Virus record (IMG/VR): IMGVR_UViG_3300044993_000765
Coordinates: 1-64,000 of that record
Strand: one strand, 5' to 3'
Length of the DNA stretch: 64,000 nucleotides
Source of the DNA: a virus
Of the stretch, positions 31,682 to 61,767 are shown in pieces (the stretch's first letter is position 1; the number at the start of each line of letters is the position of its first letter). The notes below the pieces were generated by a model. That model was not told where the DNA came from. It did no database searches and worked only from the letters and a program-made list of their open reading frames with translations. The position numbers were made by a program, and so were the translations under genes.

Positions 31682-34180
31682 TCATCCGCCGCCATCGCCG
31701 CCGCTATCGGCAGGCGGAGCCATCGTTCGCGAACCGATCCGCATCACCGGCCCACTCGGGCTGTCCAGACCTGCCGCCTCGGTTCGCGCCTGCTCCTGAG
31801 TCAGCGCCTCTTGGCGAGTCATCTGCACGTTTTGCGCAATCGCCGATGACTGCTCGATCGACTGCGAGAGCGCATGTTCCAGATTGATCGGAATTCTGCG
31901 GTGCGCCGGACTGTCGAGATCTCCCTGTACGATGAACAGGGTCTCAGGGCGTCCCGTCTGCGGATCGATGCGGCTGCTCGGCACGACATGATCGATGCCG
32001 GAGAAGTTCCATCCCTTGGCGGACAACGCCTCGGCGACAACGGAGGCGCCCAATGTCGCGCGCTCGTGCTGCGTCAGCCCCATACCGGGCGCGGTCTCGA
32101 TCCTCGACAATGCAGTCTGTGCCTGGAGGTAAAGCAGGTGCGCGGCGTGCCCGGGTTCGTTCAGCAGCGAAGGTTGCGGCGGGGTCCGGGTGTCTTCGCC
32201 GTGCAGCGCCTCCGACTCAGTCTCCGTCGGCTTTTTCCCGGGCGACGCCAGCGAAGGGTATTTCGCCATCAGCGCGGACTCGTATGCCTCCACCTTCGCT
32301 TCCACACTCGGTACCACCGTATCGTTGAGGTGCCGCTGGAACGACTCCATGCCGCTTCCGATGCCTTCCCTTACCACATAAGCCGTTTTGGGGGCCGCAC
32401 CAGGTAGGGCATGCGCTGCGACGGCATTCTCCTTGAGCGCATAGCCCGCAACCGCAGCCGCGCCTGCTACCGGCGCATACTCGCTTACCTGCGCCAGCCT
32501 GTCACTGGCGATCTCCAGTACTTCACTCAGCGACTTGCCCGCGTAGATCGTGGCATCACCCTGCAGTCGTGCACCCTTCACCGCCACCGTGTCCAGCACA
32601 TCGGCCACGGCGTCCGCGTTCTGCCGTATCGCTGCGGCGTCCTGGTTGGCGTCGCGCAGTGCCTGACCGGCTTCGGCCCGATTGCGCTGTCGCGCCTCGG
32701 TGCCGTCACGCTGCAGATCGTCCGCACGGCGGTCCGCCCAACGCTGTAGGCCGTCCGGCAGAAGGTCGATATCGCCGATGTTGCGCAGGACGCCGGCCCC
32801 GGCTGCCGCACTGCGCGCCCTCACTTCGCCCTGAAGCAGATCGATAGACGCCTCGATCGTGCCGGCGATTTCGCGGACATCCGACGAAGCCTCGCCGCTG
32901 GTGCGCACACCGGCCGCGGTCGCGCGCCCCAGGGCACGGCCTGCCTGCGCCTGAAGCTCACCCGCGAGGTTCGCGGCTGCGCGCACGCCATCGCTCTGCG
33001 CATTCAACGACGATGCATACAGCTTGCCGCCGACTTCGGCCCACTCACCGACTTCATTGCCCACACGCGCCGCCGCTGCCTCACGATGCGCGAGGTCCAG
33101 CAACGGACCAGCGAAGCTGGACACACCGGAGAAACTCGGCACGTCCGGACGCGGCACCAGCGCGCTATTGGGGTCGTCGGGGTCGCTGCGCTGCATCGGT
33201 CGCATCGGGACCACGCGCCCCGACGCCAGCGGCATGTCGCGCAGCAAGGTTTCGGTGTCGCCAGTCGCCAACTGGTCCACGAACGCACCGAACGAGACGC
33301 GCGCATGCGGCGGCATCATGTGTTCGACCCGCGCCTTCAGCTCGTCGCGCACCTCGTCGGGCACGTTCTGCAGGATGGTCGCACTGTGCCGCATCACCTC
33401 GGCCAGTTGCCGGTTGTGGAACGCATCCAGGCGATCGACGTTGTAGACCACGCCATCGCTGAGCACCTCGCCCTGGACTTGGTAGGCAAGAATGTGCGCA
33501 TTCGGATCGTAGAGTCGCGCACCTGGATTGCGGTCGACAAAATCGCGGGCGGTATCGGGATGCAGCGGCGCCGCATTGAACGTCACGGCACGTTCGCCGC
33601 TGACCGATACGGCCGCCGAGGCCAGGCCCCCTCCGAGAGAGTGGCCGGTGTAATCGACACGCACTCCAAACTGCCTGAAATCTCTCGCCAGCTCCATTGC
33701 GCGATCGTAGTAGTCGGTACGCGAGCCTATCGTCTGCGGCCCGTTGATGCCTGCGAAGTCTTCGAGCGTCGTGTCGCGCGTGGTGCCGTCCGCGAGTTCG
33801 ATCGGCCCGGAAGACCCTTTGAAGGCCACCGTGGGCTTGAAGCCCGGCCCAAGAATCTCCAGATCGGGCAGGTAGATCTCGGCGCGGAAACCTGATCGCT
33901 CTGGCTTCAGATACTTCGTGATCGCATCATTGTCAAGATGCGAAAAAGCAGTAACTTGCTGGCGCAAAAGATCAAGATTTTCACTGCCGCGTATCCATCC
34001 CGCCGGTGGCTGACCTTCGCCTGCTGCAGAAAGGTAGACGTCCTGGCCCAGGTAGGACATTTCAGCGTCGTAGTGCAACGATTGTAGCTTCTGCAGATCG
34101 GCCAGTGCCTCTGGTGTCCCAATGGATTGCAGCCGTTCACGGAGGACGCGACGGTGTTCCAGCTCTGTGGGGGACGTCAT
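31682..34180 (-). CDS. X-T4SS effector: (phospho)lipase with C-terminal XVIPCD
   Basis: YTGHSLGGG (GxSxG) and TFNAA. C-terminal PGHAAHLLY...IDHVV...LFIVQGDLDSPAHRR...SIEQSS. Confidence 0.85.
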   Translation of the reverse strand: MTSPTELEHRRVLRERLQSIGTPEALADLQKLQSLHYDAEMSYLGQDVYLSAAGEGQPPAGWIRGSENLDLLRQQVTAFSHLDNDAITKYLKPERSGFRAEIYLPDLEILGPGFKPTVAFKGSSGPIELADGTTRDTTLEDFAGINGPQTIGSRTDYYDRAMELARDFRQFGVRVDYTGHSLGGGLASAAVSVSGERAVTFNAAPLHPDTARDFVDRNPGARLYDPNAHILAYQVQGEVLSDGVVYNVDRLDAFHNRQLAEVMRHSATILQNVPDEVRDELKARVEHMMPPHARVSFGAFVDQLATGDTETLLRDMPLASGRVVPMRPMQRSDPDDPNSALVPRPDVPSFSGVSSFAGPLLDLAHREAAAARVGNEVGEWAEVGGKLYASSLNAQSDGVRAAANLAGELQAQAGRALGRATAAGVRTSGEASSDVREIAGTIEASIDLLQGEVRARSAAAGAGVLRNIGDIDLLPDGLQRWADRRADDLQRDGTEARQRNRAEAGQALRDANQDAAAIRQNADAVADVLDTVAVKGARLQGDATIYAGKSLSEVLEIASDRLAQVSEYAPVAGAAAVAGYALKENAVAAHALPGAAPKTAYVVREGIGSGMESFQRHLNDTVVPSVEAKVEAYESALMAKYPSLASPGKKPTETESEALHGEDTRTPPQPSLLNEPGHAAHLLYLQAQTALSRIETAPGMGLTQHERATLGASVVAEALSAKGWNFSGIDHVVPSSRIDPQTGRPETLFIVQGDLDSPAHRRIPINLEHALSQSIEQSSAIAQNVQMTRQEALTQEQARTEAAGLDSPSGPVMRIGSRTMAPPADSGGDGGG

Positions 34181-35100
34181 GGGTTCCCCTCATCGAGTTC
34201 TGGCAACAGGACTTTCGACTCGTCTGTTTCAAATCCGAATGCCTCCCGATCCCGCCGGTAGTGGTCCGGCAACGGGGGGCGCTTGAATCCCTTGTTCAGC
34301 ACCCACTGCTGGCACTTGATCTGCCATTCCCGTCCTTCTCCCGGATCCATGGGTTTCCAGAAAATGGACTCCATTATCAGCGATCGGTGGCTCTGGCCCG
34401 GCGGCAAAAAATTTCTAGGATTTGGGTCTGCTCCCTTTTGCAGCAGCCAGTAAGCTTTCTTGAACGCACCACGGCTAGAATAATTATGAAGAATTGTCCC
34501 GATGCCAGTGATGGCGTTGACATCAGCCCCACGCTCAACCAGTAGCTGCACGTTCTGCCACTGGTCCTGCCAGATAAAGGCTTGAAAGAGCAGCGTCTCA
34601 TTGTTGACATTCCGTGTATTCGGATCGCCGCCGTGATCGAGCAGATGACGCAGATAGATGGGGTCTTCCTGCTTCGCTGCCCATACCAGAGCATTGTCAT
34701 TGTTCCGCGCGGGACGATCTGGCGACACGGGATAAGGCAACGCCGCATTCGGATCTGCGTCGTTCTCCAGCATCGCCTTCAACCCCTCCGGATTTTTGGT
34801 GAAGATCGGCCACGCCAGCAGCGGCATGCCTTCGGGCGAGAAATGCTTGTCCGGATCGACGCCCTCCTCCTTCATCAGCCGACGCACCTCGGCGGCATCG
34901 CCAAATTCCGCGGCGACCGCCAATGCCTGGGCGCCCTTGTCCGGGTACCACGTCTCCAGGCTGCGGGTGTGCGCCGATTTGGCGGCAGGAGGCAGCGGCT
35001 CCAGCAGGCAGCCGCTGATTGTCATTTGCACCAGCAATAGGACAACAACCAGCAGAGCCTTCACATGCAGTTCCTTTTTGAGTAGAGGAGGCGGTTTCAT
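34177..35100 (-). CDS. Ankyrin-repeat lipoprotein, cognate immunity protein
   Basis: Lipobox ISGC and ankyrin repeats (LLDHGGDPN, LVERGADVN, LLQKGADPN). ATGA overlap with the effector. Confidence 0.8.
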   Translation of the reverse strand: MKPPPLLKKELHVKALLVVVLLLVQMTISGCLLEPLPPAAKSAHTRSLETWYPDKGAQALAVAAEFGDAAEVRRLMKEEGVDPDKHFSPEGMPLLAWPIFTKNPEGLKAMLENDADPNAALPYPVSPDRPARNNDNALVWAAKQEDPIYLRHLLDHGGDPNTRNVNNETLLFQAFIWQDQWQNVQLLVERGADVNAITGIGTILHNYSSRGAFKKAYWLLQKGADPNPRNFLPPGQSHRSLIMESIFWKPMDPGEGREWQIKCQQWVLNKGFKRPPLPDHYRRDREAFGFETDESKVLLPELDEGNP

Positions 35101-35210
35101 TGACGGTATCGCCCTTTTCTCATCGATACGATCCGTTTCGAGATACCCATTCCCTGTTTCAAGGCGGCATTCGGATACACATTACTGCCATAGACGGTCC
35201 TCGATTTCGT

Positions 35211-35813
35211 TCACGGGCTCCCGAAAACAACATTCGGTATATCTTCGCGCATCGCCCCTTGCCTGCCGCGCTGAATGTACATGATTTCCTGCCAGATTTC
35301 CTCGCCCATCGATCTGCTGAATGCGACACCGAGACGATAGCTCTCCTGCATTTGCTTCGGTGAATTTTCGACCAGCTTGCGGCCCAACGGAGACGAAAAG
35401 AATGCAATCAGTCCTCTGATGTCATCGCGGCTATAGTGCCGGTCGTAAAGCGCGGCCATGATCTCCATCAACTCCGGAAGTCTTCTCTCCATGACACGCT
35501 CAGAAACGGCCCTGTAATCCCGTGAGAGGGGTTTTGCAGACGCGCCGGCGTCGTCGCCCCCTTCTCCAGCGCGCATGGATTTCTCCGTTTCCTCGAACAT
35601 CATTTGATACATCCGCCTGAAGCTCTCCTCCTCATTCGTAAGTTTCATCAGCCTCACAATATCCGCATGTTTTTCGCCGGCAGCGTCCTGCGCAGACGCG
35701 ACCGGCATCACGCATATGAGTAGCAGCGCAGTCAGCCATCCCGCCAGCATGTATTTGATTCTCCTGTGACTTGTAACGTCGCGGCCTTGCGTCCCGCCCA
35801 TGTCTTCCCCCAT
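35211..35813 (-). CDS. DUF2059-like exported protein
   Basis: Signal peptide ending VASA-QD; LYDRHYSRDDIRGLIAFFSSPLGRKL. Start uncertain. Confidence 0.7.
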   Translation of the reverse strand: MGEDMGGTQGRDVTSHRRIKYMLAGWLTALLLICVMPVASAQDAAGEKHADIVRLMKLTNEEESFRRMYQMMFEETEKSMRAGEGGDDAGASAKPLSRDYRAVSERVMERRLPELMEIMAALYDRHYSRDDIRGLIAFFSSPLGRKLVENSPKQMQESYRLGVAFSRSMGEEIWQEIMYIQRGRQGAMREDIPNVVFGSP

Positions 35814-36005: not shown

Positions 36006-36452
36006 TCATGCCGCTGCGCGGGGAGAGGCCGACAGGTTCACATGCCGCATCCATTCGCCCATCGTGATCTGCGGGGGGCATTTCCCTGCCGCGATCTGCT
36101 TCTTCAGACGGATTTCTTCGCGATCTACCGCTATCGATCGAGGCGCGACTACCCCGATGCGCACCTGCCTGTTGCGCAGTGCCGAAAAACCTAGATATGT
36201 CGGCTTGAACGAGACGCTGACATCTGCGTCTCCCACCTCAAAGCGATCCTGGCTTAGCAGGGTGAGGAGATAGAAAGAGGTCCCGTCGCCCAGAGCCGCG
36301 CCTCGCATTTTCACGCCGTTGACGATCAGCGGTACCGAAGGGGGCGCGAGCACACCCAGCATGACGTGGTAGCACAGCTTGTCGTAGACGGTGAGACAGA
36401 TACTGTCTCCGATGTATATCGTCTCGCCCACCCTGCGCGTGAGGATTAGCAT
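36006..36452 (-). CDS. Tandem-domain CsrA/RsmA-like protein (cassette A)
   Basis: MLILTRRVGETIYIGD at the N-terminus and QVRIGVVAPRSIAVDREEI in the second half; SD GGAG. Confidence 0.85.
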   Translation of the reverse strand: MLILTRRVGETIYIGDSICLTVYDKLCYHVMLGVLAPPSVPLIVNGVKMRGAALGDGTSFYLLTLLSQDRFEVGDADVSVSFKPTYLGFSALRNRQVRIGVVAPRSIAVDREEIRLKKQIAAGKCPPQITMGEWMRHVNLSASPRAAA

Positions 36453-36889
36453 CGCGTGCTCTCCTGCCGTGGCATTGCCCACTGTTGTGCCATATCTGAC
36501 GGATCGGCATCGCCCGTGTGCTCGTAACTGACACGAATTGCTGCGGGCGTCGCAATCCCGACATGAACACAGTCCACGCAGTCTGCAGCCAGCGATACGA
36601 CATCGCCAGGCAGCCAGATCGCGATGAGGATGTCGTCGATACGAAAACGGCGGACACGTCGAAGCGAGAAGTAGTAAGCCTGTCTGTCATTCGACATCGA
36701 TAGAGGACTGATCGTCGCACCATCGAAAAGCAGTTCCGACCCAACGGGCGCGAATACGCTGACCGCGATCCGATCCTTTTCCCGTCCGCTGACCGCGACC
36801 TGCACGTCATTGCCGACATGGACCACCCCTCCCAATTTGCAGGTCATCACCAACATGCGTCCAAGCTCCCTGTTCAGTGAGCGCGACAT
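36446..36889 (-). CDS. Degenerate tandem CsrA-like protein (cassette A)
   Basis: MLVMTCKLGGVVHVGNDVQVAV...VFAP. Paralog of 58268..58714 (FSL..VRRFR...WLPGDVV). Confidence 0.7.
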   Translation of the reverse strand: MSRSLNRELGRMLVMTCKLGGVVHVGNDVQVAVSGREKDRIAVSVFAPVGSELLFDGATISPLSMSNDRQAYYFSLRRVRRFRIDDILIAIWLPGDVVSLAADCVDCVHVGIATPAAIRVSYEHTGDADPSDMAQQWAMPRQESTRC

Positions 36890-37023
36890 GGCAGGGCCAC
36901 CCCGCCCGTCATAACTCAGGGACCAAAATACACCATTGGTTTATTATAATGCAACCGTGGTCTTTACATCTCCCGGCTCACGTCGTCTAATCCCTGCCGC
37001 CCCTCCTCTCCGACCCGGCTCCC

Positions 37024-37674
37024 ATGGATTCCTTCGCCCAGGCTCTTTCCGACGCCATCGACGACTCCGGCATGCGTGGTGACTTCATCGCCAAGCAGGT
37101 CGGCACGACTGCGAACCGCCTTTCGCAGTGGAAGAACGGTCGTCGACCAGTGCCGGCGCACTACGCGCCCACGCTCGCCGCCGTGCTCGAAGTGCCGCCG
37201 GAAAGGATCAGCAGCGCATATGCAAAAGTGATCGAAGCTGGGCTTTCGATTGATTCTGCAAATCGATCAACACCGATACCGAGCGGCAACGTCCGTATCC
37301 CGAGGCTCGCCGATTTCGGTCGACCCGAAGCTATGGACGACTGCTATCTCCTTGAAGTCATTGCGCGTCGGAAGCTGGGGACCACACCTGTCGATGACTG
37401 CCGCTGGGCTCTGCAGCCCAATGCGGCCATGTCGCCGCTGATCGAGCGGGACTGCGTGCTGCTCATCGATACGCGCGTCACCCGCCATGCCGACATCATG
37501 GACGGGGCGGTGTATGCATTCACCCTCTGGGGACGATCTGATGTCCGCCGGATCTTCGTCAGGCGAGATCAGTTGCTGCTGGCTGCCCATAGCTCTGAAG
37601 TCGAGCGCATCGAAGTCCATGGCGATGATTTGGCTGATCTCCATCTGCATGGCATGGTTGTGGGCTGGCTTTGA
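37024..37674 (+). CDS. XRE HTH plus degenerate S24 domain repressor (cassette A)
   Basis: HTH LSQWKNGRRPVP. S24-like AAMSPLI...VLLID...DGAVYAF...VRRI. Confidence 0.8.
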   Translation: MDSFAQALSDAIDDSGMRGDFIAKQVGTTANRLSQWKNGRRPVPAHYAPTLAAVLEVPPERISSAYAKVIEAGLSIDSANRSTPIPSGNVRIPRLADFGRPEAMDDCYLLEVIARRKLGTTPVDDCRWALQPNAAMSPLIERDCVLLIDTRVTRHADIMDGAVYAFTLWGRSDVRRIFVRRDQLLLAAHSSEVERIEVHGDDLADLHLHGMVVGWL

Positions 37675-37777: not shown

Positions 37778-39334
37778 ATGGAAGGCAACAGATGGATCAT
37801 GTTCGGCAGAGGCCTGTCAGCGTCGGCGGGCTACTGCGCGGCCTATTGGCTTCTGTGGCAAGCATCCTTTGACCAGTGGTTCCTCCCGGCAGGTTTGCGG
37901 GCGACGGTCTTTCTGCTCGCCCCCTTGCGATATTGGCCCTATCTGCTGGTCGGCGACGCTGCCGCTCTACTCATCATCCGAGCCCCCATGGCCAGTGATT
38001 ATGGAGCGACTTGGGCTTACCTCAGCCCGTTCTTGCTCGCGCCCTGGGTCACTTCCGCCGTATTGTCGCTAAGAAGGCTTCTGCCTACCCTAGAACGGCA
38101 GGTATCGTGGCTCCCTGCCGCGGGCATTGCCTTGGCCATCTGGGGGACGCTCGGGAACGTCGCCATCAACGCCGTCCTGTCCGGCCCGTCTTCCTTCGAT
38201 ACTTTCGACAAGGCTTCGAACTTTGCGGTCGGGAATTACCTCGGGATTCTGCTCCTCGCGCTCCCGGGTTACTTCTTCACGATGGGCAAGCACCGGAAGT
38301 TGAAAGGCAGCATCTTCATTCGCGACACCGGAATCGGAGTTCTGCTGGTCGTCGGAATCTACGCAGCGATCTCTCTTTACGACTTCAGCATGACATCAAG
38401 GCAAGTCCTGATGATGTTGATGTTTCTGCCGGCGGCAGGCTTGACGCTTCTGCACGGATGGAGAGGGGCGGCAGCCGGCGTGTTCATGGTCAACCTCGCG
38501 ATCGCGCAGACCATGACCTATACAGGAGAAGAAGCCACCCGAGACCTTGATGTCTTTGTCGTCCAGTGCGCATTGACCATCGCCGCGATCGTCCTTCTGG
38601 CGATTGGAACGAAGATTTCTTTACTCTACAACCGCGCGAGGCAGCTTGGCATTTCCGAAAAGCGCGCCCTGGAAATGACTCGCTCCAGCCTTTTCATCGG
38701 CGAAAACAACCTGCGTGAACAGGTGCTCTTCATGGCGCAGATGCATGTCTACATGCACGAGCAACGGACACAACTGGTCGAACTATACAGGGCGCAGGGC
38801 AAATTCACGGAAGCGATGCTACTGAACAGCGCAACCGTAGAACACATGCAATCTTTCGAGAGTCGCGCCGCTGCGATTTACCCATTGAAGATCGAAGAAG
38901 TCGGACTCTATCGCGTCATTTTTCCGGATGCCTTCACCGATTTCTGGGCGGGAGATGCAGAGGTCATCTACTCTAACGCAGTCGGCATGCCGCGCACTCT
39001 TTCTGTCGACCTGCAACTGACCGCTTATCGCTGTATCTGCAATGCCTTTACGGTGCTCGCCCAAAGCGCACCGAAGCAATACGTCGTCAAACTGCGCACA
39101 TGGAAACGGCGCGGACATCGCGGTATCGTGTTCAAGGTCATCGCAAACTACGCAGGCTCGCCTCAGATCACACGATCCGGTGCGATGGCCGAGATCGATC
39201 TCGAACGGAGAGTCAAGGCGTATGGAGGCGCCATGGCGCGCAAGCAGCTTCACTGCGTCCATGTGATGCTATGGGAGCCGACGACTGACGAATCGGCTCC
39301 CACAGCAGACGAGGTCCTGCCGTCAGAAAGATGA
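37778..39334 (+). CDS. MASE1 membrane sensor with degenerate HisKA_3/HATPase (cassette A)
   Basis: WFLPAGLR...YWPYL, many TM segments and HGWRGAA. Kinase remnants IYPLKIEEVGL, AYRCICNA and RVKAYGG. Confidence 0.8.
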   Translation: MEGNRWIMFGRGLSASAGYCAAYWLLWQASFDQWFLPAGLRATVFLLAPLRYWPYLLVGDAAALLIIRAPMASDYGATWAYLSPFLLAPWVTSAVLSLRRLLPTLERQVSWLPAAGIALAIWGTLGNVAINAVLSGPSSFDTFDKASNFAVGNYLGILLLALPGYFFTMGKHRKLKGSIFIRDTGIGVLLVVGIYAAISLYDFSMTSRQVLMMLMFLPAAGLTLLHGWRGAAAGVFMVNLAIAQTMTYTGEEATRDLDVFVVQCALTIAAIVLLAIGTKISLLYNRARQLGISEKRALEMTRSSLFIGENNLREQVLFMAQMHVYMHEQRTQLVELYRAQGKFTEAMLLNSATVEHMQSFESRAAAIYPLKIEEVGLYRVIFPDAFTDFWAGDAEVIYSNAVGMPRTLSVDLQLTAYRCICNAFTVLAQSAPKQYVVKLRTWKRRGHRGIVFKVIANYAGSPQITRSGAMAEIDLERRVKAYGGAMARKQLHCVHVMLWEPTTDESAPTADEVLPSER

Positions 39335-39772
39335 CGGTGTGCGCACCTGCCAGCGTTGGGTCGCGCCATCCTGGTACAGGATCACTTCCACGTCTTCCGA
39401 GCGGAACAGGACCTTGGGCACGCCAGCCGGCTGTGTTTCCGCCTGGATGGTCACGCGATCGACATCGCTCCCGATTGGCATGGTCCAGAACGTGTCGCCG
39501 ATACGGCCCACGGCCGCTCGGACATTGCCGTATTGGTCATTGATCTGGGTATAGCGAATGCCGTCCCTCTGGAATTCGTAGACCTGCCACGCGGCATCCG
39601 CTGCGAGATCCGGCGCAACCGGGAACTCCTGGCCGAGACCGGATTGGGCAGCCGGAGCCCCGGCCCCATCGCTGGGACACCCGCACTTTGCATGGACCAC
39701 CGGGGTCGCGAGAACAGCCATCAGGCCGATGAGCGTGAGACCGCGCGTTCTTGAAGCAACCTTGAAAATCAT
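39323..39772 (-). CDS. Small secreted CGCP protein (cassette A)
   Basis: SD AAGGAG and signal peptide ending VHA-KCGCP. Aligns without gaps to 61192..61644. Confidence 0.8.
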   Translation of the reverse strand: MIFKVASRTRGLTLIGLMAVLATPVVHAKCGCPSDGAGAPAAQSGLGQEFPVAPDLAADAAWQVYEFQRDGIRYTQINDQYGNVRAAVGRIGDTFWTMPIGSDVDRVTIQAETQPAGVPKVLFRSEDVEVILYQDGATQRWQVRTPSSF

Positions 39773-39865
39773 GACTAACTCCTTGTATTCCGTCGAAAAA
39801 CAGGGATGGCGTTACCGGCAGGAGATGCCGGCGACACCGATTTGGGATACCCGCTCCATTGGTTT

Positions 39866-39888
39866 GCGGGCCACTTGACGGTAACACC
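39866..39888 (-). promoter_or_regulatory. Conserved upstream motif of the CGCP gene (extended -10-like)
   Basis: gcgggccacttgacggtaacacc, matching 61745..61767 at 20/23. Minus strand reads TGnTACCGT. Confidence 0.5.
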
Positions 39889-39911
39889 GGAGTCAGCACA
39901 TACGCTGCCGG

Positions 39912-44861: not shown

Positions 44862-44867
44862 GGGGCC

Positions 44868-49290: not shown

Positions 49291-49324
49291 CACCCGCCAA
49301 AAACCAAAGACCGCAGGATCCGCC

Positions 49325-49882: not shown

Positions 49883-49921
49883 AATATCGAACTCTTTGAA
49901 ACAGGACACACACAAGCCTAG

Positions 49922-54900: not shown

Positions 54901-56261
54901 GTATCGGCCACTTGGCGCGACCAGCGTTCGCTTTCCACGTTGTAGGTCCAACGTCCTGTCTGCACATGCGCGGGGTCGCTCTCCGACACCGGCTGCACGA
55001 ACGGGTTGCGCGGCGTCGGCACCTTGCCCAGCGCCTGTTCGGCCGCCTCCACCCCGGCCTGATAACTCAACTGCTGCGCTTTCTCGGGGGGCGCGCGATA
55101 CCGCGCCGGTTGAAAGTCGCTGATCCCATCGTCCACTCGGTCGGCGCGCAAATCTTCGCGAATCCAGTCCTTGCCGTTGTAGCCCCACGTCACGCCCGGT
55201 TCGTCGCGATCTTTCTGCGAATAAATCTTCTCGTTTTGCCAATGCGTGACGGCGCGATCAGCGGCTTCGGCCATGAGAAACGCATCGGCCGCCACCAACA
55301 CCAGCGGACCCGTGCCCGTGGCGCCCACGGCGGCCGCCGTGAGCGTGCCGCCGCCCCAGCCCGCGACATTCCGTGCGCCGAAACGTGCCCACTGCTCGTT
55401 CGCGGCGGTCGCGTTGTCCTGCGCCCACAGTTCGCTGGTGCGTACCGTCGTTTGGTACGCATCGAGTCCCGTTGCCGCAATACCGCCCATGCGCAGGGCT
55501 TGGTTGGCGGAAAGATCGCCGACCAGAAATTCAGGCGAGATAAAACCGCGCTGGCCGCGTGGCACGCGGAACGCGCGCTCTGCCGCTTCGGCCCCTTGCT
55601 CGGTCAGCGTCAAGCGACCATTCTCCTGCGCGCTGTCCACCGCCTCCGACAAGCTCTGCAAGCCTCTCGCGGCATTGCCCTTGATGGTTTTCTTTCCGGG
55701 CTGGTCGATGGTCTCCAGGCTGGCGGTCAGATGCGATTCGGATTTCAGCACCGCCGGCCAACGCGCTTCGGGGCCGGTGAGTTTGCCGACCGCCTCGATC
55801 TCAAGCGCATGCGTGCGCTGGTATTCGGGGAGATTGCGAAAGAACGCCGCGTTCCTCGCGTTCGCGGCTTCGGGTGTCATGCCTTCCGGCGTGTTGGTCA
55901 GCAGATCGCCGTTGACCATTGCGAATTTGAGGGTGTCGCAGAGGTGGTTTACTCTTGCCGCTACCCGCTCGGCGGCGGCTCGATTTCCTGCGAGTGTGGC
56001 TTGACCATCCGGCGTTTCGGCCAGCTTTTCAAGTGCGTCTGTCAGTTTGTCAGAATACTCGCCCAGCGGTCCACCATTGTGAGGCGTGACGTCGAGTTTC
56101 AATGCTAATTGCCTGTCGGCAGGCAAGTTCAGCAGATTGCGGTCGCCATGTAAGTCAAACAGACCTCCTCGCGTGAGGTCTTGCAATAGCTTGCTTCTTT
56201 TATACGCATCTTGCTCAATGACGTGATGCCCTTGAAATACAGGCTGGTCGTGCTTAGCCAT
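51939..56261 (-). CDS. X-T4SS effector: AHH nuclease, two peptidoglycan-binding domains and XVIPCD
   Basis: FQGHHVI...NLLNLP...HNGG; two LLQYRLD.QGY...ATGIADQ domains; PGHPAHAMY...VQGDP...HRA...SLEQSS. Confidence 0.85.
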   Translation of the reverse strand: MAKHDQPVFQGHHVIEQDAYKRSKLLQDLTRGGLFDLHGDRNLLNLPADRQLALKLDVTPHNGGPLGEYSDKLTDALEKLAETPDGQATLAGNRAAAERVAARVNHLCDTLKFAMVNGDLLTNTPEGMTPEAANARNAAFFRNLPEYQRTHALEIEAVGKLTGPEARWPAVLKSESHLTASLETIDQPGKKTIKGNAARGLQSLSEAVDSAQENGRLTLTEQGAEAAERAFRVPRGQRGFISPEFLVGDLSANQALRMGGIAATGLDAYQTTVRTSELWAQDNATAANEQWARFGARNVAGWGGGTLTAAAVGATGTGPLVLVAADAFLMAEAADRAVTHWQNEKIYSQKDRDEPGVTWGYNGKDWIREDLRADRVDDGISDFQPARYRAPPEKAQQLSYQAGVEAAEQALGKVPTPRNPFVQPVSESDPAHVQTGRWTYNVESERWSRQVADTVDREGAPEWNAEPEYASPERTAQLNAQARQTIDENLQAGPAAIAMRYQLGHKAYGYGEAGEVPAAVTSAMTTDRLQASDERVYERDAQGTWMRGGEPAPPQRALELDLTRERLLSAMPGYEKELARIPDWTPPTPEQADRAALRRLYVDAGRNPDVRPEEFEAAYAAVQRTRAEHGLIAGVNALELEPNTAGKSIAEIEIRHTRFGGADGKNVETAATTTPNDIAAELRELKSHEQQAPSPAHAAPEQTIAFATPEQRDAAEQAQREANRQGLSNDDTQQAVHAATIGAPARGTTPAEDAIRTPEQALENAPQRERAQDVPTTQNPAQTAAIQAMMAGPRDPDTAYPGDRNDQVALLQYRLDQQGYRGIDGQPLPQNGHYDQDTVYAVAKFQQAHDLPATGIADQPTQYAVAYAQPVPERTITQATPEERDAREQAQREANRQGLSKEDAQQAVDAAAVGASARVMTPAGDAARATEETPENTPQRERVQDTPTAQNVPLAATAVATMARDARDDDAARIERERADIEQHRDAERAARDQTPPNGVQANDSSPPTTAPVSERESAQQPNTTTTEPDVRTATSDRHAASPAVETPREPSPPSTVTAAPERESLPESERTAAKIETTTPAPTTSDPDVLRLGDRSDDVELLQYRLDRQGYRGPDGTQIPQTGQYGPETEHAVRQFQTMHGIPATGIADQDTRDAVDRALAAQRERERGEPSGPNRSTPAQDTPEPAAAARTVGLSASTARSTDDTPEREPEYTARAEAQTAPQTATALDPALAHRAATRDEREEDRQPTQASEQASPAPTLMTHPGHPAHAMYTQALGLIERGDVVPAGLLTQEEKSRLAAGVVAQFLAEDKFATRIDSLCVSTQSAPGPGLPATLIPVQGDPTTDYCHRAGINTQQALHTSLEQSSAMAQAATVMREQVLAQIQAEELAKKERQETEGPVMRIGPRTLTPSSGPQGDGDGGGDGGGGGGGGGGGGGG
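53410..54165 (-). repeat. Two about 80-aa internal repeats in the AHH effector, flanking the first peptidoglycan-binding domain
   Basis: ATPE.RDA.EQAQREANRQGLS...PQRER.QD.PT.QN occurs twice (about 53410-53650 and 53925-54165). Confidence 0.75.
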
Positions 56262-56303
56262 GATGAAATTCTCCGATGAATAAGCAAAGGGCTATCGCAG
56301 CAA

Positions 56304-56957
56304 TCAGAAATCTGCTGCGTCTCTCCAGTGCAAGCCATCCGAGCTGGGCTTGACCCCGATTCCTGCTTTACGGATTGCGTCGTACATGATCCGATCACAG
56401 ATAACGGTGAGCGGTTTCTCTGCCATCCGAAACACATGGGCCGAACCAACGACATCTTTCTTAAATGCAAGCTTCGCGCCCCTCGTAAAATCTATAATTT
56501 CTACGTCTTTCCCTGTGCGAAAATCGTGTTCGATATCAACAAAAAACTCAGAGTTTTCCCTGTCCAGAGCAGATAGTTTTCGCACCACATCGCACAGGTA
56601 GAACTGTGGCCCTTGCGATCCATCAGGCAACACGTAGTCGCATGCGGCGAACTCAAACGCCTCCGGGTCAACGGATTCAAAGACGTTCTTCAATCGCTCT
56701 GACACGAGCCAGTAACCACCAAAATCCCCATCCAGATCATTCGGCGGCCTGTTCTTTCCTGGCCCAGTGCCATGAACTAGACGTGGCGTTTCCGGCAGGG
56801 GCGGAATGCCGCCTTCAGGTGGCCGAATGATGCGAGAGGGCGGCGTCAACAATGCTTCTTCGTTTGCGAGAACGACATTGGATAGCGGCGAACTGCTGCG
56901 CGAATCTGGACGCAGCAAGTAGAACTGTCCTTTCTCGGACTTTTGCTTGGTGGTCAT
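56304..56957 (-). CDS. Imm11/DUF1629-like immunity protein
   Basis: GYWLVSERLKNVFESVDPEAFEF...YLCDVVR...HVFR; SD GAGGA; directly upstream of the AHH effector. Confidence 0.75.
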   Translation of the reverse strand: MTTKQKSEKGQFYLLRPDSRSSSPLSNVVLANEEALLTPPSRIIRPPEGGIPPLPETPRLVHGTGPGKNRPPNDLDGDFGGYWLVSERLKNVFESVDPEAFEFAACDYVLPDGSQGPQFYLCDVVRKLSALDRENSEFFVDIEHDFRTGKDVEIIDFTRGAKLAFKKDVVGSAHVFRMAEKPLTVICDRIMYDAIRKAGIGVKPSSDGLHWRDAADF

Positions 56958-57332
56958 CGTGTCCTCACTGCTCATCAATGTGTCGGTGGTCATGCAGGTC
57001 AATCGTATCGATATTTACGTGAAGGCGTCAGCATCAGCAACATGCACGCGACGCTGGCACGGCTTCGCCATTGCGCATCCACGGCCCTTGCGTATCACGT
57101 TCGTAGTCGCGGTGGTCGGATGCGCGCAGTCGGTTGGTCGTGATGGCGGATCGCCTTTACGGCGCACGGCAACTGCTGGCGGATCGTGCAGCCGGTCGTT
57201 TCGATTCGGTCGCAGCCGCTGGTGCGGGGCGATGTCGTTGTTCTCCGTCATGGAGCATTCCTGTCCTGAGTCGTCCAAATTATGACAGCGGGTCCAGCCG
57301 GTGGCACACGGCCGGATTGGCGGGCGCGGTCG

Positions 57333-57472: not shown

Positions 57473-57895
57473 TCAGGCCGCGTCCTCGATCACATACCCA
57501 TGCGTATCCGCGATGCGACGTGAGTTCGCGTGGGGATCGGTACGTGCGATTTCCTCGCGTCGGATCACCAATCCAGACGGTGCGATCACTGCAATGCGGA
57601 TCTGTCGCTGCCCGCCGCGCACCTTGCGCTTTGCGCTGGTCGCTTCTCCGACAACGATCACCGCATCGCCGAGTTGCAAGGACTCGCCCGTGAGCAACCA
57701 GAGCAGGTAGAACGCGCTGCCGTTGGAAGTCGTCACCGGCCGCAGCGCGTCGCCTTCATCGGCGACCAGGACATCCAGTGGCGCGGCGACGGCGACAAGC
57801 ACGCACGACCCGCGACGATCGCGCACGGTCAACCTCACGTCGTCACCGATGCGCAGGCTTTCGCCCGTCCTTCGATTCAGTACCAACCGGCCCAT
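57473..57895 (-). CDS. Tandem-domain CsrA/RsmA-like protein (cassette B)
   Basis: LVLNRRTGESLRIGDDV and QIRIAVIAPSGLVIRREEI; SD AAGGAAGGGA. Confidence 0.85.
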   Translation of the reverse strand: MGRLVLNRRTGESLRIGDDVRLTVRDRRGSCVLVAVAAPLDVLVADEGDALRPVTTSNGSAFYLLWLLTGESLQLGDAVIVVGEATSAKRKVRGGQRQIRIAVIAPSGLVIRREEIARTDPHANSRRIADTHGYVIEDAA

Positions 57896-57896
57896 G

Positions 57897-58268
57897 TCAT
57901 CCCTTCCTTTGGTAGCGCGACAGGCGCGCGCCCTGGGTACGCGCGATTTGCATCGCTTCAGGTGCCTCTATCTCGAACTGCGCATCGCGCATCGCACGCG
58001 CGGTGCCTGCGTGTTCTCGCGCATCGCTGATGCGTACGCGCACCGGGCCAATCTCGAACGCATCACCGTCGAACAGGGCGAGGACGTGCGCGCGCCAACC
58101 GAATCCGCACGGCGCACTGGCGCGGAAGCCGTCCACGTCGCCCAGTGCGTTGTCCTGATGGGCCTCGATGTAGACGTACCAGGTGCCATCGACCCACCCG
58201 GTCAGATTCAAGCGGATGTGGTCGCCAAAACTGACGATTTCGCCGATGGCGACGTGCAGCACGCGCAT
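57897..58268 (-). CDS. Highly degenerate tandem CsrA-like protein (cassette B only)
   Basis: VLHVAIGEIVSFGDHIRL and FEIGPVRV...FEIEAPEAMQIAR; coupled to both neighbours. Confidence 0.55.
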   Translation of the reverse strand: MRVLHVAIGEIVSFGDHIRLNLTGWVDGTWYVYIEAHQDNALGDVDGFRASAPCGFGWRAHVLALFDGDAFEIGPVRVRISDAREHAGTARAMRDAQFEIEAPEAMQIARTQGARLSRYQRKG

Positions 58269-58714
58269 CAGCGATGCCCCGAGAAAGTACCGGCCTCGCC
58301 CAGCGTCCCGCCCAAGGGGGCGCGCGGCAACGCGGAGGAGGCCGGCAGGGAAACCGGGGCGAACCTGTCCCGGAGCGATGAGCCGATAACCCGATCCGCC
58401 ACGGCGGACGCGATGCCAAGGTGAACCGCGTCATCGCAGCCGCGTGCATGTGGCACCACGTCGCCGGGCAACCAGACCTGCAAGGCCAGATGCCCCAGTC
58501 GGAAGCGGCGCACGGCCAGCAGTGAGAAGACATAGCCCCAGGTGCCGTCCGCGCGGCGTAGCGGCTCCAGGCGCGCGCCGTCCAGCCACAGGCAGATGCC
58601 GGCTGCCGCGCTCACAGACAGCGCCACACGGGGACCGATGCGAGCCTGGACGACGATCCGGCTTCCTTCACCAACCCGGACGGGTTGGCCAACACGGCAC
58701 GTCATCACCTCCAC
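58268..58714 (-). CDS. Degenerate tandem CsrA-like protein (cassette B)
   Basis: SD AGGAGG before GTG 58714; VMTCRVGQPVRVG. Paralog of 36446..36889. Confidence 0.7.
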   Translation of the reverse strand: MEVMTCRVGQPVRVGEGSRIVVQARIGPRVALSVSAAAGICLWLDGARLEPLRRADGTWGYVFSLLAVRRFRLGHLALQVWLPGDVVPHARGCDDAVHLGIASAVADRVIGSSLRDRFAPVSLPASSALPRAPLGGTLGEAGTFSGHR

Positions 58715-58759
58715 GGGACACCTCCTGTGTGGCCGGACGAGGAGGCCGGCGGCAGGCGC

Positions 58760-58788
58760 ATCGTTACCGGCGTTAACGCTGGTGTCAA
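58760..58788 (-). promoter_or_regulatory. Putative sigma70 promoter with palindromic operator for the csrA-like operon B
   Basis: TTGACA (58788-58783), 17 nt, then AACGAT. The spacer contains the palindrome GCGTTAACGC (58770-58779). Confidence 0.45.
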
Positions 58789-58847
58789 TAGGATGAATTT
58801 CTGATGTAGGCTTACACCATCCCCGTTCAGCCCGGAACCTGCCCCCC

Positions 58848-59504
58848 ATGAACAAGTATTCCCAAGCCTTCCACGACGCCATGAAACGCACCGGCCTGCG
58901 TAACGTCGTGATCGCCGCGCACGTCGGGAAAGTCGGCAACAACTGTGTTGCGCAGTGGCGTTCGGGGCGTCGCCCCATCCCCGCCGAACACGCGCCCAAG
59001 GTCGCCGGCCTCCTCGGCATCCTTCCCGAGCAGATCAGCGAGTCCTACGATCGACTGGTGAAGGCGGGTGCTCTGCTGCCGGATGCGGTGCCCGGCCGAA
59101 ATGCGCCGCCGTACGGCCATATCGTGCTGTCGGAACTGGAGGATTTCAGCCGAGAAGCCGAACAGCCGCGCATCTGGCTCCCGGAGTCGATCACCAAGCG
59201 CAAGCTGGGCCTGACGCGGCCCGCCGACGTGCGCTGGGCGCTGCAACCGTCGCTGTCGATGGCCCCGGACATCGAGCGGCAGGCGCTGGTGCTGATCGAC
59301 ATCACCGCGCAGCGGCACGAGGACGTGGTGGACGGTGGCCTGTACGCCTACGCGCTATGGGGCAGGCCGGACATCCGGCGCATCCTGGTCCGCCGCGATG
59401 CCTGGACGCTGGTGGGGACCAACCCGGAAGTGGAACGGGTGACGGTGACTGAGGAAGAATTGCCGGAGCTTCGCGTGTTCGGCAGCGTGATCGGCTGGAT
59501 TTGA
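58848..59504 (+). CDS. XRE HTH plus degenerate S24 domain repressor (cassette B)
   Basis: VAQWRSGRRPIP and LSMAPDI...LVLID...DGGLYAY...IRRI. Paralog of 37024..37674. Confidence 0.8.
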   Translation: MNKYSQAFHDAMKRTGLRNVVIAAHVGKVGNNCVAQWRSGRRPIPAEHAPKVAGLLGILPEQISESYDRLVKAGALLPDAVPGRNAPPYGHIVLSELEDFSREAEQPRIWLPESITKRKLGLTRPADVRWALQPSLSMAPDIERQALVLIDITAQRHEDVVDGGLYAYALWGRPDIRRILVRRDAWTLVGTNPEVERVTVTEEELPELRVFGSVIGWI

Positions 59505-59607
59505 CGGGCGGGATCGGGCCTAGAATGGCATGACGCCAGCGCGGCGATCGGCACACCCTGTCGGATCAGACAGGGGCGGCGACAACACAGGGAACAGGGA
59601 GCGGAAT

Positions 59608-61155
59608 GTGGGCAAGACCTGGGGCAGGTATCTCGCGAAGGGCATCGTCATCGCCGTGGTGTACGGCGTCGCCTATCTGGCGCTGCGCTACATCTCGTTC
59701 AACCAGTGGTTCCTGCCGGCGGGGTTGCGCGCGGCATGCCTGCTGTTCCTGCCGTATCGGTATTGGCCCTTCCTCTTTCTTGGGGAAGCGGGACTCACGC
59801 TGTCCAAGAAGATCGAGATGATCGATGTCTATGGTGCAGCATGGGTCTACCTTAGTCCGTTGCTCATGCCGCCGATGGTCTCGGCGCTTCCATTTCTGGT
59901 CAGAAGGAAGCTGGGAACCGGTGATCGGTTGATGCGATGGCTGCCATTGCCCGCAGCCCTGATGGCCATTTGGTCTTCGACTTGCAATTTCGCGGTGAAT
60001 CGTCTTCTTGACGGTCCAAATCATCCAGAAGACTTGAAGGCATTCTTGGGGTTTGTCATTGGCGACTACCTCGGGATTCTCACCGCGCTGATGATCGTTT
60101 TTTTGTTTCGATCCCTGCGAAGAGAGCGCCATGTCTCATTTGGCTTCATCCGTGACTCCGTGATTTCCGCTGCACTGATCGGATTCGCCTACGTCTGGAT
60201 CGAGCACTTTCTAGCCGAGGACGATTTTCTCCGTCTTGCGTTGCTCATGACGATGACGATTCCCATCGTACTACTGACCTTTTTCCACGGTTGGAGAGGA
60301 GCCGCTGTTGGCTCATTACTGGCGAGTCTTGGAGTCGCCCAGGCGATGACCTATACCGGAATCCAGAACTCAAACAATGACTTGGTTCTCTACGCTCAGA
60401 TGGGCCTTGTAGTAACGTCTGCCATGTTGCTTCTGCTGGGCGGGCAGATCACTCGACACTATGAAAGCGCCAAAGCGTCAGGTTTCGCGCAACAGGAAGC
60501 ACTGAAGCTCGCACGCATGCAGTTGCTGTCCAATGAGCCTGCGGTGCGTGACCAACTCATCATCATGGCGAGCATGCAGGTGCAGATGGACGACGCCCGC
60601 GACCTGCTCGCCAAGGATCTGCACGCCAACGGCAAGGCACGCGAGGCGATGGAGTTGAACCGCCGCGGCGTCGAGCATCGGCAACTGTTCGAGGTGCAGT
60701 CGCTGGTGGTCTATCCCATCGGCATCGAGCGCGACGGCTTGTTCGGCGTGCTCGACACCGCCGCCTTCCGCGAGTCGCGCGCCAGCGGCGTGGCGGTCGA
60801 GTTCGCCTTCGGCCGCATCGACCCGCGCACGCTGTCGGAAGACTTGCAGGTGTCGGCCTACCGTTGCCTGTGCCACGCCATCGATCACCTGTCGGACTGG
60901 GAGCCGGCCCGCTACCGCCTGCGCCTGCGGGTCTGGCATGGTCGCGCCCGGCGTGGACTCTACCTGTCGGTCGCCATCGACACCGAGTACGCTCGCCACG
61001 TCACGCCGCACGGCGAGAGCGCCCTGCTGCTGCTGGAGGCACGGGTCAAGGTCCACGGCGGGCTGCTGCGCCGTACGCCGCACGGCATTCGCCTGCTTCT
61101 GTCGGAGCCGGCCGGGGAGCCTGCCGCCTTCCAGCCGCTGCCCCACACGGAGTAA
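59608..61155 (+). CDS. MASE1 membrane sensor with degenerate HisKA_3/HATPase (cassette B)
   Basis: WFLPAGLR, YWPFL, HGWRGAA, VYPIGIERDGL, AYRCLCHA and RVKVHGG. Likely GTG start at 59608. Confidence 0.8.
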   Translation: MGKTWGRYLAKGIVIAVVYGVAYLALRYISFNQWFLPAGLRAACLLFLPYRYWPFLFLGEAGLTLSKKIEMIDVYGAAWVYLSPLLMPPMVSALPFLVRRKLGTGDRLMRWLPLPAALMAIWSSTCNFAVNRLLDGPNHPEDLKAFLGFVIGDYLGILTALMIVFLFRSLRRERHVSFGFIRDSVISAALIGFAYVWIEHFLAEDDFLRLALLMTMTIPIVLLTFFHGWRGAAVGSLLASLGVAQAMTYTGIQNSNNDLVLYAQMGLVVTSAMLLLLGGQITRHYESAKASGFAQQEALKLARMQLLSNEPAVRDQLIIMASMQVQMDDARDLLAKDLHANGKAREAMELNRRGVEHRQLFEVQSLVVYPIGIERDGLFGVLDTAAFRESRASGVAVEFAFGRIDPRTLSEDLQVSAYRCLCHAIDHLSDWEPARYRLRLRVWHGRARRGLYLSVAIDTEYARHVTPHGESALLLLEARVKVHGGLLRRTPHGIRLLLSEPAGEPAAFQPLPHTE

Positions 61156-61183: not shown

Positions 61184-61191
61184 CGCCGTCC

Positions 61192-61644
61192 TCACTCCGC
61201 CGCGCCCAGGGTGCGGATGAGCCAACGGGTCACGCTGCCGTCCTGGTAGCGCACCACTTCCACGTCGGTGCCGCGATACAGCACGCTGGGCACGCCCGCC
61301 GGCACGGCATCGCCGGGCACGGCCACACGGTCGGCGTCGGTGCCGATCGGCATGATCCAGGCGGTGCCGCCGATGCGCCCGGCTGCCGCGCGCACGGTGC
61401 CGGCGGAATCGTTGATCTGCACGTAGCGCACGCCGTCGCGCTGGAACTCGTAGATCTGCCAGGCGGGATCGGCGGCAAGATCGACGGCGGCCGGGAAGGA
61501 CTCGCCGAGTCCACTTGAGGCCGCTTGGCTCCAGTGCCCATCGGCGGGGCAACCGCATTTCGCCCAGGCGCTCGGCGTGAAGAATAGTGCGCAGGCCAGC
61601 AGGGCGAGCGGCGCGCAGGCGGAACGGGAAAGATACATCGACAT
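61192..61644 (-). CDS. Small secreted CGCP protein (cassette B)
   Basis: SD AAGGAG and signal peptide ending AWA-KCGCP. Paralog of 39323..39772. Confidence 0.8.
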   Translation of the reverse strand: MSMYLSRSACAPLALLACALFFTPSAWAKCGCPADGHWSQAASSGLGESFPAAVDLAADPAWQIYEFQRDGVRYVQINDSAGTVRAAAGRIGGTAWIMPIGTDADRVAVPGDAVPAGVPSVLYRGTDVEVVRYQDGSVTRWLIRTLGAAE

Positions 61645-61744
61645 GATGAAACTCCTTTGGTCTTGGTCCGTGTTGAGGTGCTAACGGCGCGACGGTTCCC
61701 CCGGCCTGCCGTTAACGATGGATGGCCCGCTTGGCGTCTTCGCA

Positions 61745-61767
61745 GCGGGCATCTTGACGGTACCACC
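61745..61767 (-). promoter_or_regulatory. Conserved upstream motif of the CGCP gene
   Basis: gcgggcatcttgacggtaccacc; see 39866..39888. Confidence 0.5.

Follow-up and report, generated by a model that had tools for sequence, protein, structure and literature searches.

Two paralogous repressor, MASE1 and CsrA-like gene cassettes in a provirus represent a conserved unit that frequently precedes toxin genes

Lambda CI, LexA and PrtR are repressors that join a helix-turn-helix (HTH) domain to an S24-like C-terminal domain, UhpB of E. coli is a sensor kinase in which a MASE1 domain is combined with HisKA_3 and HATPase_c and whose partners are UhpC, a co-sensor in the membrane, and UhpA, a regulator, and CsrA/RsmA are homodimers of 60-70 aa chains with two identical RNA surfaces, each site being made of strand beta-1 of one subunit and strand beta-5 of the other. 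Relatives of all three lie side by side in the stretch analyzed here (the window), which corresponds to the first 64 kb of the 75,953-base IMG/VR provirus record IMGVR_UViG_3300044993_000765. It contains two cassettes, C1 (31682-39772) and C2 (51939-61644), in which a CI-like repressor gene is followed by one for a MASE1 membrane protein, convergent with a gene that encodes a small exported protein carrying a CxC motif, while a divergent set of CsrA-like genes leads into effector and immunity genes comparable to the X-Tfe/X-Tfi pairs of the Xanthomonadales killing type IV secretion system (X-T4SS). The component families are known and the combination is new: in line with the first-pass annotation of this DNA, whose author knew of no description of such a system, full-text literature searches turned up no account of the cassette.

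Gene order and strands are identical in C1 and C2 (Table 1), so that the arrangement originally claimed for the two copies is borne out by gene coordinates and strands, and the chosen reading frames show the bias in third-position GC content (GC3) of real genes. The regulatory genes are paralogs, as had been proposed, with identities of 64% for the exported protein, 43% for the repressor, 37% for the MASE1 protein and 37-42% for the CsrA-like proteins; the cargo differs, also as proposed, with the two effectors being alike only in their XVIPCD tails (41% identity). Because no long repeat was found when C1 and C2 were compared at the DNA level, the duplication of the cassette must be old; moreover, each copy is nearer to cassettes of other genomes than to the other one, with C1 grouping with loci L005-L007 and C2 with L011, L014, L017, L037 and L058. 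Since it recurs in dozens of other genomes, the arrangement is far above chance.

The extent of this recurrence was evaluated around the exported protein, 136 loci of which were identified by scanning species-representative genomes; they belong to Lysobacter, Thermomonas, other Lysobacteraceae, Xanthomonas and Dyella, with up to five loci per genome in several genomes. Cultivable carriers include L. brunescens CCUG 55585 (L055), L. cavernae KCTC 42875 (L056), Lysobacter sp. CA199 (L043, L069) and L. enzymogenes 521 (L068). Counts refer to 79 of these loci, at which neighboring genes were found by tblastn with the window proteins, and denominators are the loci with enough flank. The MASE1 gene is convergent with, and directly behind, the exported-protein gene at 74/74 loci; a repressor gene is found upstream of MASE1 at 60 of 72; and tandem CsrA-like genes diverge from the repressor at 51 of 65, so the linkage anticipated by the first-pass annotation is present elsewhere. 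It also holds in reverse, in a sample of 150 genomes that were evenly drawn from the family and independent of the loci: 21 strong loci for the pseudo-kinase domain of the MASE1 protein (see below) were detected in 15 genomes, 18-19 of these loci adjoin a convergent exported-protein gene, and this MASE1 family flanks every strong exported-protein match (18/18), every repressor-family match (6/6) and three of the four full-length tandem CsrA genes (the fourth being ~9 kb off), with the remaining CsrA matches corresponding to the housekeeping gene. Linkage is nested: the exported-protein/MASE1 pair is the core, to which repressor and tandem CsrA are added in Lysobacter-like genomes.

The components diverge in step: their distance matrices co-vary, with correlations of 0.89 (MASE1-repressor), 0.74 (exported protein-repressor) and 0.67 (exported protein-MASE1) and a looser fit for CsrA. 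These correlations show that the components are inherited as one unit, in which the CsrA genes have been shuffled to some extent; they are no proof of physical interaction. Together, linkage in both directions and distance matrices identify the four regulatory components as a conserved, co-inherited unit. This is difficult to reconcile with the idea that the genes are neighbors without common function, brought together fortuitously or by artefactual annotation of high-GC DNA. Spurious open reading frames (ORFs) are indeed numerous in this 65% GC DNA, and several family matches are below curated thresholds; however, dozens of loci in different genomes and neighborhoods share the order and orientation, linkage is found both ways in the independent 150-genome sample, GC3 in the frames is biased as in real genes, and both the exported protein and the MASE1 C-terminus have confident folds. 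We consider such an explanation highly improbable and already contradicted by the linkage counts.

Like lambda CI, LexA and PrtR, the cassette repressor appears to combine an HTH with an S24-like C-terminal domain and is encoded divergently from its putative target operon, with palindromes over the promoter; like PrtR and LexA in the case of pyocins and colicins, it is located upstream of toxin genes. Its initial label as an XRE-S24 protein holds in part: Pfam S24 scores of 21.4 (C1) and 21.7 bits (C2) are under the cut-off of 23.3, HTH matches are weak and a profile search of the PDB returned just weak HTH matches, whereas the PHROG families of CI-like repressors do match. Around the S24 active site, the sequence conforms to the usual M-x-P-[TL]-I...V-L-x-x-D pattern, but, unlike in the reference repressors, the catalytic residues are replaced. 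The position of the Ser nucleophile (G-D-S-M-x-P motif) is occupied by Ala135 in C1 (A-M-S-P) and by Ala in 16 of the 22 aligned members, with Ser being kept in the C2 repressor and five relatives; the position of the Lys in the V-K-L-L motif of LexA corresponds to an Arg-Arg that is invariant in all 22 members, an assignment that rests partly on motif reading because the hhalign pairing is weak (E 0.097). Loss of the Ser-Lys dyad rules out canonical RecA-stimulated self-cleavage for most members. A further difference from lambda CI, LexA and PrtR is that the repressor gene, which is on the same strand as MASE1 and ends 103 nt (C1) or 25 nt (C2) upstream of it, is probably co-transcribed with that of a membrane pseudo-kinase.

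At 82.2 (C1) and 60.8 bits (C2), the MASE1 proteins are well over the Pfam gathering cut-off of 29.8 (PF05231). A model of the C-terminal 236 residues of the C1 protein (aa 283-518; predicted local distance difference test (pLDDT) 88) consists of a dimerization and histidine phosphotransfer (DHp) hairpin followed by an alpha/beta catalytic-type domain, and is best matched in Foldseek by DesK (E 6.5e-8, probability 1.00), then by HK853 and ChpT. This architecture, with an N-terminal MASE1 membrane domain preceding a DesK/HisKA_3-like DHp and catalytic-domain fold, is that of UhpB, for which there is also a weak NCBIfam match over the first membrane helices; as in UhpB, moreover, there is an obligate gene for a second sensing partner. 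Unlike UhpB, the cassette protein lacks the conserved His, the N box, the G box and a consistently linked response regulator. Among 38 sequences, no helix-1 column (domain residues 12-57) has His in at least 40% of them as a possible phospho-acceptor and no column of the N-box helix reaches the same level for Asn; the DxGxG G box is absent; neither HATPase_c nor HisKA is matched in Pfam; and the profile of the domain does not match the sequences of solved kinases in the PDB. No receiver domain is encoded among the cassette genes, and Response_reg is found in just 3 of 118 upstream-flank proteins at other loci. On the basis of the model, the C-terminus is thus best described as a predicted pseudo-kinase, having the fold of a kinase without its motifs. 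Two additional differences from UhpB concern the partner, which here is beta-rich, small and exported instead of being a transporter-like membrane protein, and the adjoining regulator, which is a CI-like repressor.

The partner gene, whose C1 copy is overlapped for 12 nt by the convergent 3' end of MASE1, encodes a protein with 76 homologous clusters, each at least 46% identical. C30, C32 and P33, which make up the CxC and the following Pro at the mature N-terminus, are invariant across homologs; in an AlphaFold2 model (pLDDT 79), they belong to a disordered tail that extends to approximately residue 45 and is followed by a confident beta domain. The C1 protein has no match in Pfam, NCBIfam or PHROG, its fold has no clear counterpart in the PDB (Foldseek and a wide VIA-align search, best Z 4.5), and an ESM Atlas search gave unnamed clusters only. 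A lipoprotein was considered and ruled out: the residue between the AxA site and the first Cys is variable (K, Q, G, V, A), a pattern consistent with cleavage by signal peptidase I. Prediction of a complex between MASE1 aa 1-300 and the mature exported protein scored 0.00 and 0.16 (mark 0.32) and counts neither way. Some loci carry two to three tandem exported-protein genes (L008, L027 and L031, upstream of 10001), and in one genome a single exported-protein gene is shared by two MASE1 pseudo-kinase genes in tandem (G146:C1:3364863-3367336). Weak relatives of the exported protein (E ~1e-10) in frames of 186-221 aa are found away from any MASE1 gene (G015:C1:3479862-3480245, G079:C1:3836676-3837068, G088:C136 and G134:C1:4020752) and, by sequence, may represent a distant paralogous family.

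The two to three CsrA-like genes initially assigned to each set are of unequal standing. The last one (Z type) exceeds the Pfam gathering cut-off of 27 bits (PF02599) in both cassettes; the first one (A type) is sub-threshold in C1 and unmatched in C2, where the middle one (M type) is also unmatched. Elsewhere, the sets are A-Z in 23 loci, A-M-Z in nine and a single gene in others. The Z type also matches phrog_9500 ('CsrA-like regulator') and, over two stretches that are below the equivalog cut-offs, NCBIfam csrA; like CsrA/RsmA it retains RNA-binding residues, and like phage CsrA-like genes and CsrT, reportedly a CsrA paralog of a Legionella integrative and conjugative element (ICE), it is carried on mobile DNA. 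Unlike CsrA/RsmA, however, it is a single chain of 130-160 aa with two repeats and keeps the residues of only one of its two composite sites. In repeat 1, MLxLTRR is kept and the REEI end is absent; in repeat 2, the beta-1 arginines are lost and AP...REE is invariant in 33 sequences. Because RNA binding by CsrA needs L, L, R, R of beta-1 and R, E, E of beta-5, and these are kept at one beta-1/beta-5 pairing, one functional site per Z chain is predicted. A and M types differ from CsrA/RsmA in that they are without REEI. An alignment of 23 A-type sequences shows C6, C93 and H98 to be conserved, and this Cys/Cys/His set may be a metal or redox site; the start of the C1 A type was reset to 36856, behind an AGGGAG Shine-Dalgarno sequence. 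A literature search on fused or tandem forms of CsrA found no paper naming such proteins, and to our knowledge the only single-chain, one-site CsrA described so far was made by engineering.

Each cassette has motifs in common between its two ends, which suggests shared control. In C1, the 10-mer AAACCAATGG of the divergent control region recurs upstream of the exported-protein gene, and both copies are kept in the relative L005. In the C2 lineage, the repressor/csr intergenic layout (TTGACA, two CGTTAACG-like palindromes, Shine-Dalgarno sequence and GTG) is conserved in five members; there are only two copies of CGTTAACG in the 64-kb window, at 58771 and 61710, the second of which (61710-61717) precedes the C2 exported-protein gene by 66 nt, and at this place TCGTTARCG is kept in 6/6 lineage members. 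Overall, the csr-promoter motif is repeated upstream of the exported-protein gene in 6/6 members of the C2 lineage and 2/2 of the C1 lineage, and the conserved palindromes of the repressor/csr intergenic region overlap promoter-like hexamers. The distribution of these lineage-specific palindromes at the csr and exported-protein promoters suggests that both may be controlled by the repressor. Separately, a conserved non-coding element, in which GGTGYTACCGTC precedes a GCCCGC...GCGGG inverted repeat, is found upstream of the exported-protein gene in both lineages (61690-61800 and 39800-39900 in the window; also in L005, L011, L014, L017, L037 and L058).

Taken together, these features lead us to favor, tentatively and with somewhat less than even confidence, a model in which the cassette is an SOS-independent CI-type switch that is gated by the MASE1 pseudo-kinase and its exported partner and releases CsrA-like regulators as well as any toxin cargo. 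Lacking the Ser-Lys dyad, the repressor would be deaf to RecA/SOS via canonical self-cleavage and would be co-transcribed with a MASE1 protein whose kinase core is predicted to be dead, and whose gene is always tail to tail with that of the exported CxC protein. By binding the lineage-specific palindromes, the repressor would keep the promoter of the divergent CsrA-like operon off, and probably that of the exported-protein gene too. The pseudo-kinase and the exported protein, acting as a periplasmic co-sensor, would then alter repressor activity through direct contact when an envelope or periplasmic cue is received. Derepression would yield the single-chain double-CsrA proteins, among which the Z type, with one canonical RNA site, would bind RNA and act after transcription; by co-transcription, derepression would also drive the downstream same-strand genes, which in 18/57 complete cassettes of other genomes include a horizontally acquired toxin/immunity pair (RHS, X-T4SS XVIPCD or Tle1-like). 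As the operators of C1 and C2 differ, the two copies would act as insulated switches. The kin-, contact- or density-sensing role put forward in the first-pass annotation is likewise hypothetical. That the cassette embodies a new signalling logic, with a CI-type repressor that no longer cleaves itself under RecA and is gated at the membrane by a MASE1 pseudo-kinase and a CxC partner, a one-site CsrA as output, and use by mobile elements and chromosomes as a portable controller for timing exchangeable toxins that belong to different secretion systems (RHS, X-T4SS, Tle), is a bolder proposition that we regard as possible but doubtful.

Several observations weigh against this model. About half of the cassettes are without a downstream toxin, so control of cargo cannot be the sole output. 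The distances of Z-type CsrA correlate more loosely with those of the other three parts (r 0.39-0.50). The exported-protein/MASE1 pair occurs without repressor or CsrA in nine Xanthomonas-type loci, which represent one conserved ICE and where the pseudo-kinase must therefore have another output. At the level of DNA, neither intergenic region yielded a sigma-70 promoter in a consensus scan, a terminator scan of both cassettes gave none above chance, and the signal from family-wide k-mers common to both promoters is weak, with 7/55 loci above the 95th percentile of the cross-locus control (P 0.065).

In the window, the resemblance of the cargo to X-Tfe/X-Tfi pairs consists of two effectors that end in XVIPCD, over the Pfam cut-off of 24.9 bits, and are preceded by immunity-type genes (ankyrin, Imm11). 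Unlike the known pairs, these reside in a prophage and in an integrative island and have a dedicated upstream regulatory cassette, of which no mention was found in the effector papers retrieved by literature searches. The designation of the C1 effector as a lipase is upheld by the match of its N-terminus to the lipase effector 7ubz of a type VI secretion system; that of the C2 effector as an AHH nuclease is less secure, its AHH match being sub-threshold (18.4 vs 22.3 bits). Homologs of the C1 ankyrin protein are found at the same position in L023 and L029. The adjacent DUF2059 protein, whose true start is likely at ~35750 and which has a signal peptide by sequence reading, was not found in other cassettes. 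The Imm11 region (56001-57000) has a GC content of 0.52 compared to ~0.65 around it, which fits foreign cargo.

A census of same-strand genes downstream of the csr genes in the 57 complete cassettes places this cargo in a wider context. RHS proteins are found in 12 (10 of one family, with that of L005 ending in a deaminase, and two SpvB/TcdB/RHS), XVIPCD effectors or their immunity genes in approximately four (L023, L026, L029 and L017), Tle1-like proteins in two, one of which is preceded by virD4, and unassigned proteins in approximately six; in a further 15, the next genes are housekeeping ones (trpGDC in an eight-locus clade, glutamate-synthase-like, Usp/MgtC, aconitase or hybrid kinase genes), and 17 have no same-strand gene or reach a contig end. 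A profile made from the XVIPCD domains of the window itself found only L023 and L026, in agreement with Pfam (two members in 79 downstream pieces). The cargo elsewhere resembles polymorphic RHS toxin cassettes, with variable toxin tips and Imm genes. Within the C1 lineage it is a lipase-XVIPCD effector in C1 and an RHS-deaminase in L005; within that of C2, it changes from AHH-XVIPCD in C2 to RHS in L011/L014/L037 and to a Tle1-like protein in L058. Because cargo differs within one cassette lineage, it is interchangeable, as had been suggested; its description as T4SS cargo does not generalize, the T4SS link being a special case and toxin cargo being frequent, not obligatory. In L038 (14247-20424), a virD4 coupling-protein gene is found directly behind three CsrA-like genes and is followed by two small genes and a Tle1-like phospholipase gene.

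There are three main readings of the cassette, which overlap and differ in the purpose that they assign to the output. In one of them, the cassette is a stand-alone pathway that senses envelope stress or attack, its output being CsrA-like proteins that act on host mRNAs in trans, and toxin neighbors merely reflect insertion into a variable region. The CsrA-like genes are, in fact, the only ones that are always under the divergent promoter, many loci are followed by housekeeping genes or by nothing, and residues of one RNA-binding site do not vary among Z-type proteins. This reading sits poorly, however, with the presence of toxin or immunity genes at 18 of the 39 loci with a downstream gene on the csr strand, which is far above their genomic share, with their distance of 3-390 nt from the last csr gene on the same strand, and with the swapping of cargo within a lineage while the junction is kept; we therefore judge it to be improbable.

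The surroundings of the two cassettes bear on the remaining reading. Gene calls, which were GC3-guided and complemented by family searches (Pfam, PHROG), identify the window as a prophage, in which C1 forms a moron, with head genes on one side and the adaptor gene on the other. The large terminase gene, read past the end of the window in the same record, is in two pieces ~16 kb apart, and the interval (record 51215-67563, L084) contains, along with C2, a tyrosine integrase, a CHC2 zinc-ribbon primase and an AAA_25 helicase; C2 is therefore part of an integrative island, by which the terminase gene is interrupted. The unit occupies many unrelated chromosomal sites as well as mobile elements, in line with the mobility that the first-pass annotation had inferred. 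Instead of controlling weapons, a locus of this kind might serve mobile elements as an immunity switch of the lysogeny type, with the repressor silencing early genes that are CsrA-like here and Cro-like, Ogr-like or primase genes elsewhere. MASE1 and the exported protein would then be membrane functions that the lysogen expresses together with the repressor, in the way that rexAB is co-transcribed with lambda cI, for example for the exclusion of incoming elements; toxin pairs would be incidental morons, and chromosomal copies would be remnants.

This possibility is in keeping with the matches of repressor and Z-type CsrA to the phage families phrog_4, phrog_6201 and phrog_9500, with the location of both window copies in mobile DNA (the prophage head-gene block and the integrase/primase island) and with the Xanthomonas pair lying, by eye, among TrbJ/TrbL-like ICE genes. 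It also draws on L043 (12022-16528), L056 and L067, where a repressor-MASE1-exported protein trio, without CsrA, faces a Cro-like HTH gene and a Toprim primase gene and, by eye, an Ogr-like zinc-finger gene in L043 and L067; the arrangement suggests that the trio may also serve there as the repressor module of a satellite-like element. On the other hand, the flank past the exported-protein gene consists of ordinary, unrelated chromosomal genes at ~50 Lysobacteraceae loci, where no integrase, primase or phage family is recurrent; the eight-locus clade is beside trpGDC, with no element genes in view; the replication genes of the C2 island are not under the divergent promoter; and no PADLOC defence model matched the cassette, save for a chance-level HTH (E 0.0027). 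Overall, we find an immunity switch credible though unlikely, and retain the membrane-gated switch with toxin cargo among its outputs as the preferred, if tentative, model.

If that model is right, it would address a poorly understood aspect of bacterial biology, namely how expression of horizontally acquired interbacterial toxins is timed. For the X-T4SS, we know of no reported control other than a global one by CsrA, and the cassette is a compact and testable candidate for a dedicated switch that travels with toxin cargo. A dead S24 repressor together with a dead kinase would show how pseudo-enzymes can be rewired into signalling, and the Z type is a natural single-chain CsrA with one predicted binding site. 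Independently of mechanism, prophages and integrative islands are shown to carry X-T4SS effector-immunity pairs.

Table 1. Features of the two cassettes and of the surrounding prophage (positions are those of the window; those marked 'record' are from the complete provirus record)
Feature	Position	Strand	Basis or remarks
C1 effector, lipase-like N-terminus and XVIPCD	31682-34180	-	XVIPCD 56.2 bits; 7ubz E 1.7e-20
C1 ankyrin-repeat protein, probable immunity	34177-35100	-	Ank_2 E 2.4e-17; 4-nt overlap with effector start
C1 DUF2059 protein	35211-35813	-	DUF2059 E 1.5e-13
C1 last CsrA-like (Z type, single-chain double CsrA)	36006-36482	-	Pfam CsrA 62.5 bits, two stretches
C1 first CsrA-like (A type, degenerate tandem)	36446-36856	-	CsrA 22 bits, sub-threshold; BLAST to Z type E 1e-7
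C1 divergent control region	36857-37023		TATAAT flanked by ACC-N-GGT palindromes; ACCATTGGT at 36932-36940
C1 CI-like repressor (HTH and S24-like)	37024-37674	+	phrog_4 E 4.7e-10; phrog_6201 'CI-like repressor' E 2e-8
C1 MASE1 membrane protein	37778-39334	+	MASE1 E 4.5e-23; C-terminal predicted pseudo-histidine-kinase core
C1 exported KCGCP protein	39323-39772	-	signal peptide, mature N-terminus KCGCP, beta-rich domain
C2 effector, weak AHH, two PG_binding_1 and XVIPCD	51939-56261	-	PG_binding_1 E 2.3e-29; XVIPCD 42.4 bits
C2 Imm11 immunity protein	56304-57002	-	Imm11 E 6.8e-62
C2 Z-type CsrA-like	57473-57895	-	Pfam CsrA 46.7 bits
C2 M-type CsrA-like	57897-58268	-	no Pfam match; BLAST link
C2 A-type CsrA-like	58268-58714	-	no Pfam match; BLAST link
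C2 divergent control region	58715-58847		TTGACA, CGTTAACG and CGGTAACG, Shine-Dalgarno, GTG start
C2 CI-like repressor (Ser kept, Lys to Arg)	58848-59504	+	phrog_6201 E 2.8e-10
C2 MASE1 predicted pseudo-kinase	59530-61155	+	MASE1 E 1.5e-16; 37% identical to C1 over 518 aa
C2 exported KCGCP protein	61192-61644	-	64% identical to C1 copy
SU10-type adaptor	30434-31144		family search
Major head protein	40580-41530		family search
Portal	46484-48601		family search
Large terminase, C-terminal part (430 aa, ends 51214)	49922-51214		family search
AAA_25 helicase	record 62834-64675		between the two terminase pieces
Tyrosine integrase	record 65963-67372		between the two terminase pieces
Large terminase, N-terminal piece (64 aa)	record 67369-67563		beside small terminase; record read past window
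Small terminase	record 67550-68149		~16 kb from terminase C-terminal part

The small ORF that had been included in the C2 cassette (57015-57278, 87 aa) is doubtful as a gene and was dropped, since the conserved, effector-like stretch at this position is in a different frame. That stretch (57040-57150, 111 nt) lies between Imm11 and the last CsrA-like gene; its 37-aa translation shares 65% identity with the C2 effector over residues 522-558. It is linked to a pair of DNA repeats (54612-54696 / 57064-57148), is present also in L017 and may be what is left of an earlier effector gene.

The Xanthomonas element loci that carry the exported-protein/MASE1 pair include L079 (7505-12619), L070, L074-L077, L080 and L081; by eye, the neighbors of the pair are TrbJ/TrbL-like and TrbM-like, and an SF1 helicase gene is next in at least three loci. 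In the window itself, two very long ORFs occupy the minus strand at 5358-19637 (4759 aa) and 1-5241 (at least 1746 aa, continuing past the window), and the patches 24001-25000, 49001-50000 and 56001-57000 have a low GC content of 0.47-0.52, compared to ~0.65.

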